Below are positions 7,736-33,562 of a DNA stretch of 64,000 nt, in pieces. Source of the DNA: Candidatus Hodarchaeota archaeon. Lineage in GTDB: Archaea; Asgardarchaeota; Heimdallarchaeia; Hodarchaeales; Hodarchaeaceae. Each line of letters begins with the position of its first letter. Position 1 is the first letter of the stretch. The notes under the pieces were generated by a model. It saw only the letters and a program-made list of their open reading frames with translations. It was not told the DNA's origin and did no database searches. The stretch is from NCBI GenBank assembly GCA_029856365.1, contig JAHQWW010000002.1:69098-133097 (forward strand). Direction: 5' to 3'. Position numbers and translations under genes: made by a program.

Positions 7736-7878
7736 TAAAAATAAGGTTAAAAGAAAGGAAAATACGAGGGTATAAAAATAGGATATATTTGTGCAATAAC
7801 CAACGGTATACGTACCAAAAGGTATGAGATAAAAGAATCTAATTCTTGAATTAACACGTAAAACAGATTAGTATAATA

Positions 7879-8571
7879 CTAATTTGTACTATGTTCTCTA
7901 ACTGGATTTTTGAATCTTTCTCTAATTACTATAGTGTTAGCTACGATATCTAATGGTCTTTGAAAGTCAGTTTTCTGAACAATTCCGATAATAACTTCAA
8001 ATAGAAGTATAAAAGCCTCTGTTTTAGTTAAATTCCGTATAATTGCTTGAGACCAGGTTATTCGAACCCCTGATACATCACAAACAGTTAATCCTAGCAA
8101 AGCTTTACCTGGAGTTTTACTTGTTACCTTTTCAAAGAAAATAAAATAGCCCACATTCCAAACTAGTATATATGGAACTAGAAAGAAAAACAATGTTACT
8201 AATGCGATTACTATCTGACTTCGTGATGATCCAATTGCAAAATAATTGGTAGTTAATACTGTTCTCAACCAAATAAAGACACCTGCCAAAATTCCAATCA
8301 TTTGTATAAAAGTGTCAATCATGAAGGCCATGACTCGATCAGAATAACTAGATCGCTGTATGTGCCAATCCTGACCTGAACTTACGTCTTTCGCAACTTG
8401 ATAGGGGTCACCAAAAGCTTGTACAGGATCTTTTTTCTCCGTGTCTTGAATGGCCTCTGTGATTTCCGCCTTTAATCTTTCCAAAACTAGTTCCTTTTTT
8501 GTACTAGGATAAGGAAGCCAATAATCAATTTTTTGCATATAGGAATCTATGGATAAAAATTTGTCATTCAT
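7879..8571 (-). CDS. RDD family membrane protein with N-terminal helical (FGDP) domain
   Basis: R..AFMID, TPGKALLGLTV, QRPLDIVANTIV. Confidence 0.9.
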   Translation of the reverse strand: MNDKFLSIDSYMQKIDYWLPYPSTKKELVLERLKAEITEAIQDTEKKDPVQAFGDPYQVAKDVSSGQDWHIQRSSYSDRVMAFMIDTFIQMIGILAGVFIWLRTVLTTNYFAIGSSRSQIVIALVTLFFFLVPYILVWNVGYFIFFEKVTSKTPGKALLGLTVCDVSGVRITWSQAIIRNLTKTEAFILLFEVIIGIVQKTDFQRPLDIVANTIVIRERFKNPVREHSTN

Positions 8572-8920
8572 CTTCTTTCATCCTCTTTATTTCATTACTA
8601 AAATTTGCTAGCATAATGTTAAGGAATTCAGTTAATGATTCCTGTAGTTCCGTTAGAAAGGACTGACCCTCTTTTGTAAGCCCGTACATGACTTTGCGTT
8701 CTTTCTCTTCTGTTACCCTAATCAATCCTTCATCTTTCAGTTCTTTAAGTATAGGATAAATGTTAGAAGACGCCATTGTTAACATTCCTTGGGTTCGCTT
8801 CGGAATCTGTTTTGTTAACTTGTAAGGATAGCTTTCTCCTTCATCAAGAAGTATCTGGAGGATAGTTGGCTTAGCAAATCCCTTACGATAGCCAGCTTCC
8901 CAACGATCGAGATTACTCAT
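8564..8920 (-). CDS. PadR family transcriptional regulator
   Basis: IYPILKELKDEGLI...Y.LTKEG; overlaps the RDD gene start. Confidence 0.9.
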   Translation of the reverse strand: MSNLDRWEAGYRKGFAKPTILQILLDEGESYPYKLTKQIPKRTQGMLTMASSNIYPILKELKDEGLIRVTEEKERKVMYGLTKEGQSFLTELQESLTEFLNIMLANFSNEIKRMKEDE

Positions 8921-9343
8921 AGTGAATCCTCAATTATTTTAACAATCTATAAAACTATCTATAATACAATAATTTTCAATATAAATACCTTTCCTTAGGG
9001 GAAATTAACACTTAAAAATGATCAATGAATTCAAACCTTTCTTTTAATTAAAACAATATCAATGGATACAGTAATCAACTCATTTCTGATCTATATTCAA
9101 CTTGAATATCAGTAAAATAGTTTTTCTAAGTTATTCAAGTACATAAAACCTCTACAAATCTACCAAACCCTTTATTAGCCTCCCAAATTGATCAAATAAT
9201 TAAATATCTCCATTTTTTCACCTTAGTTCTGAAGAGATACTTAGCTGAGGTACAAGGAAAAGGAATCTTCTTGTAGTTTTATAAACTATTTTCCTATTCT
9301 GAATCAGCCCTTAATGCTTTGATCTGAAAAAGACTCTGATGTT

Positions 9344-9868
9344 TTAATATGTTTTATTATTAATGACTGTTCCTATTAGCGACGCCAATTTATGAAAAGC
9401 ATTCTCCACATTTTCACCAGTCAGAGCTGAAGTAATAAAGTGTTCTCCAACATTAGCGTGATGTTTTAAAAAATCCTTTATATCTTGACGTGAGACCGCC
9501 ACCGATTCTCTTAAATCTACTTTATTTCCGATTAGAACTAACGGAATTTCCCCTGCTATGTTTTGGATATCCTCTATCCATGATGCTTGAAGATTGTCTA
9601 GACTTTTAGGTAACGTTAGGTCGAATACTAAGAAGGCCCCTCTTGTACCGTTGAAAAATCTTTGTCGAAATTTACGAAACGATGTCTGGCCTGCGACATC
9701 CCAGATTTGTAACATAACTTCATAATTGTCAACAAATAATTGCTTTGTATATATTTTAACACCTATTGTTGCTTTGTAATCACCAGTAAAATATCCAGTA
9801 ACAAAACGATTGATTAATGAGGTCTTGCCAACCCCTTCATCTCCCGCTAATACGATTTTATAGTTCAT
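9344..9868 (-). CDS. Rab-like small GTPase (eukaryotic signature protein)
   Basis: G1 GDEGVGKTS, G2 YKATIG, G3 WDVAGQ, G4 NKVD, G5 SAL; no C-terminal Cys. Confidence 0.95.
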   Translation of the reverse strand: MNYKIVLAGDEGVGKTSLINRFVTGYFTGDYKATIGVKIYTKQLFVDNYEVMLQIWDVAGQTSFRKFRQRFFNGTRGAFLVFDLTLPKSLDNLQASWIEDIQNIAGEIPLVLIGNKVDLRESVAVSRQDIKDFLKHHANVGEHFITSALTGENVENAFHKLASLIGTVINNKTY

Positions 9869-10278
9869 TATGATCCCCTTACATTCATTTAACGATTCTC
9901 AGAGCGTCTAATCTTCTCATCATCATCTCACAACGGAATTTTATTTTGTTAAATTGCTTTTCCTCTGTTTACAATGCAATTACAAATATCAAAAAGAATA
10001 GTCATTACAACGTATCCTATAAAATATGAAGAGAGGATAACCAAAATTTAGATAAAATAGGTAACAAAATATTGGAAGATTTAATTAACAGCAGCACAGA
10101 TCAAAAACCTAATCAAATTAACCGAGTTCCACTAGGAATGATACTCAAATACCTCTAGTTCAGGAATTCGTTTAAAGTGATCCACCCCCCCTTGGAAGCA
10201 TAAGAATAATTATGAGCATAAGGAAGAGGTCCCCCGTTCAAAATTGTGATTAGTATATGTAAATATCCATATATTTAG

Positions 10279-31403: not shown

Positions 31404-31607
31404 TCATGCCCTTTTCCAAAGTATTTTTTCACCATCGGCCATTCGTTTACTAATCTGCTTAAGCTCTTGAATTTCTGAATTAGATAATTCTTCTTCAGGC
31501 AAGGTAATGAGGAGTTCTAATCGTTCAACCTTTTTCTTAAGCTCTAATAATTCCTTATAAATTGTTTCAAGAGTTATGGTTGCCATCTTTGCCACTTTAT
31601 TCAACAA
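31404..31607 (-). CDS. Putative antitoxin of the RelE module (likely start at MATIT)
   Basis: Small acidic protein upstream of relE, EEELSNSEIQEL. Confidence 0.7.
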   Translation of the reverse strand: MLNKVAKMATITLETIYKELLELKKKVERLELLITLPEEELSNSEIQELKQISKRMADGEKILWKRA

Positions 31608-31757
31608 ACTTAGTTCATGAAAGATTTACTCTTATTATCTTATAAATTCTTGGATAAAATTTGCATTAAGTTCTGAAACAATTTTTCTAGATTATTTCAT
31701 AGAATATAAGGAGGTTCGTGTGTAATACCAACGATATATTACTTTTTATATAACGTT

Positions 31758-32639
31758 TTATATATCCATAATTCTTTCCCCAAGTCGTTTAACAACACTG
31801 GGGTCACGATGTGAAAAGAAACAACTCTCTTTAGTATCAAGCGTTCCAATTCGTTCCATATCCTTATCGGTTAATTCAAAATCAAAAATATTGAAATTTT
31901 CAATAATTCTATTTTTGTGTGTAGATTTAGAAACTACAATAATCTCTCGTTGGACCAACCAACGTAAAACAACCTGTGCAACAGATTTTTGATGCTCATT
32001 ACCGATTGAAACGAGAACTTCATTCTGGAAAAGATTATTTTTTCCTTCAGCAAAAGGAGCCCACGATTCCATTTGGACATTGTATTCTTTCATGACTTTA
32101 TTATTTTCAATCTGTTGACAAAACGGATTAACTTCAACTTGATTAACAGCTGGAGATATATCGTTATGAATAATCAAATCAACAAGACGATCAGGGTGGA
32201 AGTTACTAACACCAATGGCTCTGATTTTACCTTCACGATAGAGTTCTTCCATCGCTCGCCATGAACCGTAAACATCACCAAATGGTTGGTGGATAAGATA
32301 CAGATCCAAATAATCCAATTGCAATCTTTTAAGAGCTTTATCAAACGCAACTTTGGTTTTTTCATAGCCTGTATCCTGGATCCAGAGTTTAGTAGTAATA
32401 AAAAGTTCTTCTCTGGGAATTCCACTCCGTTTGATTCCAAATCCAACTGCTTCTTCATTCATATAGGAAGCTGCTGTATCAATTAAACGATACCCAGTCG
32501 TAATAGCATCATAAACAGATTGTTCACAGAGTTTTTTGTCAGTAATCTGAAAAACTCCAAAGCCAGACATTGGCATTTCAATCTCATTGTTTAATTTTTT
32601 ATACAGCAAACCAAACACCTTGTAATTTATATTGTTCAA
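31758..32639 (-). CDS. Aldo/keto reductase (2,5-DKG reductase-like)
   Basis: [37 protein letters not shown]; start uncertain. Confidence 0.95.
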
Positions 32640-32640
32640 A

Positions 32641-32964
32641 CTAATACTTATGCATTAACTTCAGATATATTTCTACAATGTCTATAGATTTAGAAATAAA
32701 ATCATTTTTATAATTACCAATAATTTTGTATCTTTTTTCAATTGATTCATTTCTAGCTATTGATTCCATAAGAACGCAATAAATAGCATACATCTTAACT
32801 GATTCTGCTTTGGTGTTGTTTATTGAGTTAGTAAATAGTTTCCAACCATAAACGTCAATTAATGGAATAATTATAAAGCGGTTTAAGGTAACTTTTGTCA
32901 AAGCCACTATACCAATAAATAAAGTACTTACAGCTGCTGTGTTAATCGAAGATGAATTATCCAT
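32641..32964 (-). CDS. Hypothetical protein or fragment
   Basis: ORF only. Confidence 0.3.
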
Positions 32965-33562
32965 TGTAAGAAAAAAAATGATCGATTTTGTTCAAGAATT
33001 TGAATTATTCTTTGAAAAAATACCAGAAGACAATTTTATTAACGAAATAGCTTTTTCACCAACCAGACAGATTGTAAATAGAATATTTTTAGAATAATTT
33101 CTTGAATTCCGAAAAAAAGTGATATAGGAATAGTTTCCAAATTAGTATAGCTATAGAAACATTAATTAATGAATTACTTAACTAATTAATGAATAGAAAC
33201 TTATCATTTTACATTCAGATTTATTTAACATTCAGATTATTTCATCTAGAAAATTCAGATTATTTTGTCATCCTCACAAACTGTATGTATTAACATACTG
33301 TTTGATCTTTTTTTTTGTCGTGATAGACATACTTTACATATAAAAAACTAATCTTATCCAACGTTAATTCAACGAAAATCTTTATGTTTTCTTTATATAG
33401 TCTGGATGTCGTTTAACCAGAGTTATAGTACATCATACGTATCAACATACGTATTTTCGGTAACATATCCAACGTTAATGAAGACTTTTTACATAAAATT
33501 AAGTGTCATCCAGTTTGTAAGTTATCCAAAGTTACAAGCCATATTCCGGAGGTTTTTTGTTT

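Follow-up and report, generated by a model that had tools for sequence, protein, structure and literature searches.

A chain of gene modules joined at CCAACG cores in a Candidatus Hodarchaeota genome, with joints resembling hybrid Xer-type sites rather than integron sites

The window considered here is a 64,000-nt stretch of the genome of a Candidatus Hodarchaeota archaeon (G000:C204:69098-133097, on GenBank contig JAHQWW010000002.1; assembly of 4.24 Mb in 204 contigs, 84% complete), with a GC content of ∼33%, in which accessory genes lying in both orientations are separated by intergenic gaps that carry a recurrent hexameric core, CCAACG. The genes fall into modules of 0.1 to ∼10 kb, often multi-gene, whose cargo includes toxin-antitoxin parts of the ParE/RelE, PIN and AbrB types, an ABC transporter pair, an aldo-keto reductase, a dehydrogenase, a CDF transporter and a beta-helix protein; a Ras-family GTPase gene and a gelsolin gene are both present and speak for an Asgard archaeon. 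The cores form a plus-oriented and a minus-oriented array, and the segment between the two (33.5-51.5 kb) contains an ATP synthase operon. On balance we lean towards reading the region as a chain of gene modules whose joints would be hybrid sites of a site-specific recombination system, one served by an Xer-like recombinase rather than by an integron.

Core frequencies were determined on the plus strand of 22 intergenic gaps between 7.7 and 33.6 kb (6657 nt, delimited by a gene call based on open reading frames, ORFs) and set against 500 dinucleotide shuffles of the same gaps. A preliminary description of this DNA, which proposed that an integron-like system had built the intergenic patchwork by shuffling cassettes around a YYYAACG-type core, had placed AACG at 19 coordinates, and the tetramer is present at every one of them. 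Enrichment over shuffled sequence, also anticipated there, is evident for AACG (29 copies against 14.4 expected, standard deviation 3.4), YAACG (23 against 6.0), YYAACG (16 against 3.1) and CCAACG (7 against 0.4), the observed counts being reached by 0/500 shuffles, and the reverse complements of the cores are not enriched in the gap set, where the count of CGTTGG is 0. Genome-wide, CCAACG is merely mildly over-represented in intergenic DNA, the excess being concentrated on the window's own contig (C204) and on C127, C95, C160, C180 and C49. The enrichment is owed largely to repeat families that all end at CCAACG, which is the preliminary description's own point and no artefact. The agreement with the integron consensus RYYYAAC is partial: some cores fit it exactly, but only ∼30% of independent cores do so because position -1 is mostly A.

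The arms on either side of the core were compared by extending 1011 distinct CCAACG sites, drawn from this genome and from loci of its relatives, outward from the hexamer. Among 148 similar pairs, the similarity is confined to the right arm in 75 and to the left arm in 63 and extends over both in 10, these last being mostly coding paralogues, which bears out the claim that left and right flanks recur independently. CCAACG is the exact end of at least eight left-arm and at least five right-arm repeat families, which combine freely, and one 46-nt unit has a core on both sides and occurs also in tandem. With one representative taken per arm family, conservation beyond the hexamer consists of T-A-A before it and W-T after it, and the homology boundaries confine the exchange to positions from about -4 to +3 relative to the hexamer, a resolution too coarse to single out the crossover between AAC and G that had been proposed. 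The right arm reported in four copies (18486, 26124, 26843 and 33358), here termed R1, proves to be a real element of ∼75-90 nt with seven copies in the genome, and the left arm at 31039 and 33338 is likewise a real repeat; the left arm at 9061 and 18473 matches at only 17 of 19 positions, with one indel, and the copy at 9061 is not followed by AACG. R1 has a sharp start at CCAACG, followed by AT-rich, TATA-like sequence and, at its right end, by an 11-6-11 palindrome whose arm directly follows CCAACG in one right-arm family; the element is found in 13 of 22 genomes of the genus at 75-93% identity, often at contig ends. A separate perfect 10-6-10 palindrome, with T-rich TATA arms around ACGTTT, occurs in two copies in the window (31017-31042 and 31738-31763). 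The cores and associated elements of the window, with left-arm families numbered L1 and so on, are as follows.

7800-7805, plus strand: core CCAACG, first joint of the plus-oriented array.
18486-18556, plus strand: R1 element with variant core TCAACG, AT-rich TATA-like stretch and palindrome (left arm 18534-18544, centre CCTTTG).
20100-20116, plus strand: half-site with variant centre CCAATG and a perfect 11-nt right arm (20106-20116).
25474-25479, plus strand: variant core CTAACG, upstream of the gelsolin module.
26124-26190, plus strand: R1 from CCAACG, immediately behind the gelsolin gene and at a point where other-sample contigs break.
26195-26332, minus strand: 46-codon tyrosine recombinase fragment with box I region and GLR motif (tblastn and profile).
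26354-26716, minus strand: internally deleted 4Fe-4S ferredoxin-domain gene, sole ORF of a 719-nt module between two R1 cores.
26843-26880, plus strand: partial R1 from CCAACG.
27667-27672, plus strand: variant core CTAACG, left edge of the ABC-transporter module.
31007-31064, plus strand: short unit running from CCAATG to CCAACG, with left arm L4 and a 10-6-10 palindrome; right edge of the ABC-transporter module.
31697-31763, plus strand: left arm L1, CCAACG (31728) and second palindromic unit; joint of the ParE/RelE and aldo-keto reductase modules.
33331-33474, plus strand: L4 arm, CCAACG (33358), full R1 (palindrome 33406-33433), L2 unit and CCAACG (33469); an 'empty' unit of 111 nt (33358-33474) has the same 13-nt core stretch on either side.
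51507-51575, minus strand: two cores 63 nt apart, the second with an L3 left arm and a 9/11 right arm (51570); start of the mirror array.
54495-54511, minus strand: half-site with a perfect 11-nt arm and variant centre GCAACG.
63568-63624, minus strand: two more CCAACG cores.

Arms of this kind bring in the main rival explanation, a dispersed mosaic of short intergenic repeats (Neisseria-like, or miniature inverted-repeat transposable elements, MITEs) spread by target-specific insertion or homologous exchange, with CCAACG serving as a favoured target or end motif and not as a tyrosine-recombinase crossover. Such a mosaic is consistent with arms of 20-90 nt that number from a few copies to ∼20, many of them at contig ends and some arranged in tandem, with the 111-nt unit flanked by 13-nt direct repeats, with orthologous genes of relatives that mostly lack cores, as if the elements had been inserted later, and with patches of strain differences (described below) that would indicate active homologous exchange here. 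We nevertheless consider it unlikely, since the elements have neither terminal inverted repeats at their ends nor a linked or matching transposase (Y1 is absent, the TnpB, IS110 and IS4 copies are unrelated, and there is no serine recombinase), and since an orientation that is uniform over tens of kb and a hexamer common to more than 13 unrelated arm families are unlike ordinary MITEs.

That uniformity is visible in contig order, where 13 plus-oriented cores are followed by six minus-oriented ones; under the strict motif, neighbouring cores lie on the same strand in 18 cases and on different strands in four. A weight-matrix scan, some of whose matches are coding, yields 16 plus matches up to 46.6 kb and seven minus matches from 51.1 kb, and coding matches to the motif show a modest antisense bias (58:42). 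A search for a symmetric central site in the interval separating the two arrays (33.5-51.5 kb) found none. Co-oriented arrays are found at four related loci as well (G007:C3, G007:C53, where CCAACG occurs nine times against 2.1 expected, G009 and G011:C31), and in G009 the motif has a strand bias at the level of domains that were picked after looking, for which replication-linked polarity has been considered. The orientation of the genes is mixed, as had been noted, and bears no relation to the cores: seen from the core, the flanking genes fall 10, 10, 10 and 9 times into the four possible configurations, and such equal frequencies argue against a part of a promoter or terminator.

The same counts bear on the proposal that the arms are promoters or operators of the accessory genes, CCAACG and its palindromic arms forming the site of a dimeric transcription factor. 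Every arm family does contain a TATA-like box, which in three left-arm families lies ∼18-19 nt before the hexamer, roughly the spacing at which a transcription start would be expected; the palindromes are operator-like, and the neighbourhood is rich in toxin-antitoxin genes, a class in which autoregulation is common. A regulon would however hold its sites in fixed orientation to the regulated gene and at a set distance from it, whereas here the downstream gene is co-oriented in 19/39 cases and the upstream gene also in 19/39, and the elements at 18486 and 26124 lie between convergent genes. Here the centre is conserved and the arms are not, whereas a factor that bound the arms would be expected to give the opposite pattern, and a regulon leaves the strand uniformity of the arrays unexplained. 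A purely regulatory role is thus less likely than a repeat mosaic, and we regard it as improbable.

The nature of the site is suggested by its intact form in relatives. A genus-wide pattern search returned 14 arm-centre-arm palindromes in 7/22 genomes, against four for a reversed-pattern control, and in three of the 14 (in G002, G012 and G007) the centre is exactly CCAACG. The intact site consists of the 11-bp arm ATGTCRTTTAA, the centre CCAACG and the inverted arm; the window holds half or hybrid sites only, with a perfect arm at 20100-20116 and 54495-54511 and a near-perfect one at 51570. In its layout, arm-CCAACG-arm matches a dif-like site of a tyrosine recombinase, CCAACG being the asymmetric centre, two inverted 11-bp arms around a 6-bp spacer being the form of Xer/dif sites in bacteria and archaea alike (PMC2958812). 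The centre is conserved and the arms are degenerate, as would be expected of a crossover region and not of a protein-contact site.

The region is not an integron, and that label was wrong in its particulars. Bottom-strand folds of 120-nt stretches on both sides of 10 cores gave z-scores of -2.3 to +1.1, a stability no greater than that of shuffled sequence, with no attC-like single-strand fold at any of the 10, in keeping with the poor hairpins already remarked upon; in these folds the core bases have no consistent distant partner, and the gap set contains no inverted core, so that there is no R''/R' pair. The search for IntI, a tyrosine recombinase marked by an extra domain peculiar to integrons, found in this genome, which is 84% complete, a single tyrosine recombinase, which passes the XerA model, and the additional integrases of relatives score 60-70 bits against the cut-off of 265 of the integron-integrase model TIGR02249. 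Integrons and clusters of attC sites lacking an integrase (CALINs) have been reported in ∼8% of Asgard genomes (Ghaly et al., 2022; PMC9668308), and a canonical array that has lost its integrase and whose attC sites have degenerated would share with this region its co-oriented short sites between accessory units, the reassortment of arms around a short core, the cores that fit RYYYAAC, the toxin-antitoxin cargo and the want of an intact integrase. Its sites would however be folded single-stranded attC sites, in which inverted R''/L'' and L'/R' boxes form a hairpin of 57-141 nt, whereas those here are double-stranded palindromes with a 6-bp centre, without hairpin, inverted core partner or IntI, and they separate modules of 0.1 to ∼10 kb, often of several genes facing both ways, in place of single ORFs in one orientation. 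An origin as a CALIN is therefore very improbable. Site-specific shuffling is still the best reading of the patchwork; it is the integron framing given to it that finds no support.

In the site-specific reading, circular modules would be repeatedly inserted at existing sites to give a co-oriented array, since with an asymmetric centre recombination between two sites would keep one orientation. The hexamer would be the crossover region, and each joint would keep the centre together with the innermost arm bases (TAA / TTA), the outer arms deriving from the modules that meet there; hybrid joints of this kind would therefore account for the arm reassortment that had been described. The enzyme, whose identity and activity we infer, would likely be a divergent Xer-like integrase known from relatives, or possibly the host XerA.

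The closest parallels include the pdif modules of Acinetobacter plasmids and the arrays of integrative mobile elements exploiting Xer (IMEX) at chromosomal dif, such as CTX/TLC of Vibrio cholerae and the gonococcal island, in which Xer-type 11-6-11 sites delimit the modules, the centre and one good arm persist in hybrid sites, and successive integration gives tandem co-oriented arrays. The pdif sites are known to alternate in orientation, whereas the sites here are co-oriented; further, the present site cannot be equated with the universal chromosomal dif, since just 7/22 genomes have full sites, the candidate enzyme belongs to a separate divergent integrase family, and the host is archaeal. 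In neisserial intergenic mosaic elements, short repeat blocks are likewise joined at a short conserved motif, dRS3, which is also a recombinase target. That motif is a symmetric inverted repeat, unlike the asymmetric hexamer that orients whole arrays here, and gene modules are not known to be the unit of those elements. Archaeal XerA/dif resembles the present site in its layout of 11-bp imperfect inverted arms and 6-bp spacer (Cortez et al., 2010; PMC2958812), and the genome encodes a bona fide XerA, but dif is a single site per chromosome that serves dimer resolution, whereas dozens of sites with mostly degenerate arms are found here at module joints.

Besides XerA, divergent Xer-like integrases of 290-320 aa are encoded at 11 loci in nine related genomes; they score under all curated cut-offs, and in three genomes a small overlapping ORF precedes the integrase gene. 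Representatives lie at G009:C1:737660-738520, G011:C27:43074-43940 and G007:C56:201273-202136. This genome has two fragments of such integrases. One lies inside the array at 26195-26332 and aligns in tblastn with the G007 integrase over 31 aa at 58% identity (profile E 7.8e-10), so that the earlier statement that the window contains no integrase is correct for an intact enzyme but overlooks these 46 codons. The other, at G000:C83:952-1062, is an isolated integrase 3′ end comprising the last 37 codons, including the catalytic tyrosine region, with 95% DNA identity to the G009 gene and unrelated DNA upstream. The ORF at 26354-26716 was considered as an integrase N-terminus and rejected, its 350-aa homologue in G007:C53, relative to which it has a ∼618-nt internal deletion, being a ferredoxin-domain protein. 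Other sources of the cores were also discarded: insertion of an IS200/IS605-type element beside its target (there is no Y1 transposase, and the TnpB copies lie elsewhere), the IS110 and XerA loci (no cores nearby), a serine recombinase (none in the genome) and the IS4-like element at 51642-53284, which has unrelated inverted repeats of its own.

Comparison between species places breaks of synteny at cores on both edges of the ABC-transporter module. At the left edge (27667), G005 has the same right side joined through a degenerate core to a different left arm of the L3 family, and on the right (31059) homology with G007 extends through the left arm and the hexamer, beyond which the G007 DNA is unrelated; other breakpoints lie 85-130 nt from a core, and genes of modules that are neighbours here are on different contigs in G007. 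Contigs from other samples, 99.3-100% identical over 15.8-36.2 kb, have the module order unchanged, which makes the array static among strains. Because only two integrase fragments remain and the strains do not differ in their modules, the array in this strain looks like an inactive fossil, which agrees with the earlier suggestion of a decayed system. Two strain-level changes were observed within modules. Of 83 differences from two other-sample contigs, 81 lie in two SNP patches of the ABC genes (28973-29135 and 29686-30361), which resemble tracts brought in from a diverged relative or paralogue through homologous recombination, and one metagenome contig (L063) has a 102-nt deletion in the aldo-keto reductase gene (32360-32461) that halves the called ORF.

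Several observations weigh against a site-specific system built on this core. Gain or loss of modules at the AAC cores, which the preliminary description proposed to look for between strains, is not seen: no indel falls at any core and no recombination event was detected among the strains compared, and most orthologues of window genes in relatives have no adjoining core. The palindromes at R1 ends have the same arms as the full sites and other centres, which fits poorly with a single exchangeable site, and the symmetry of the arms within one site does not exceed that predicted by the family consensus. Nor are the three full CCAACG palindromes independent: the left flank is common to all three and the right flanks differ, so that they are related copies diverging at the centre. 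The aldo-keto reductase module appears to sit inside the palindromic unit of the second copy of the 10-6-10 palindrome and not at CCAACG. Finally, the link between integrase and site is weak. Under a strict criterion, CCAACG sites with library-matching arms within 540 nt are present at 2/11 integrase loci and 0/15 XerA loci, that is, two observed against ∼0.26 expected (roughly p = 0.03); a looser threshold, picked after seeing the data, gives 5/11, and the raw density of CCAACG is no higher near the integrases than near XerA. The association of the Xer-like integrase with the sites is thus suggestive only.

A more general proposal, which we hold tentatively and with less confidence than the reading of this region, is that Asgard archaea of this type might possess a chromosomal gene-cassette system of their own, consisting of an Xer-like integrase, frequently with a small partner gene ahead of it, an arm-CCAACG-arm site and co-oriented arrays (here two, mirror-oriented on either side of the ATP synthase operon), analogous to integrons and nearer in mechanism to dif modules, of which the window would be a decayed example. 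If so, these archaea would shuffle accessory genes (toxin-antitoxin systems, transporters, redox enzymes, gelsolin) by a dedicated non-integron site-specific system, which would provide a concrete route of gene flow in the lineage closest to eukaryotes. It would also follow that such arrays escape attC-based tools. A literature search found no published description of one. The proposal is directly testable, the site being a defined 28 bp and a candidate integrase being at hand. For the window itself the practical result is more modest, namely that the array is real and apparently inactive.

The hexamer also occurs in other contexts. In G009 a perfect 14-bp palindrome, CCAACGATCGTTGG, consists of two cores head to head (positions 3965-3978 of locus L070; G009:C1, ∼1,993,965); this CCAACGATCGTTGG stands directly after an aldo-keto reductase homologue, with a further plus-oriented core 40 nt on. 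A G-rich structured repeat (gggagggagg ... cgttgg), found in G009 (5825-5861 of locus L072) and twice in this genome (C32:7078 and C154:50391), carries CCAACG and CGTTGG ∼30 nt apart and represents a separate element family that also holds the hexamer.

Rfam and tRNA scans found neither tRNA-derived att fragments nor known RNA families. The IS4-like element at 51642-53284 is bounded by imperfect inverted repeats of 37 nt, encodes a DDE transposase of 502 aa and adjoins two minus-oriented cores, to which it is unrelated. The beta-helix protein (22288-24822) is an 844-aa right-handed, NosD-like protein with at least 19 tandem repeats of 69 nt (23 aa). The A/V-type ATP synthase operon (38225-47916) has only 64-70% DNA identity to relatives, compared with 85-91% for the neighbouring accessory genes, and may be a second, divergent or acquired copy.

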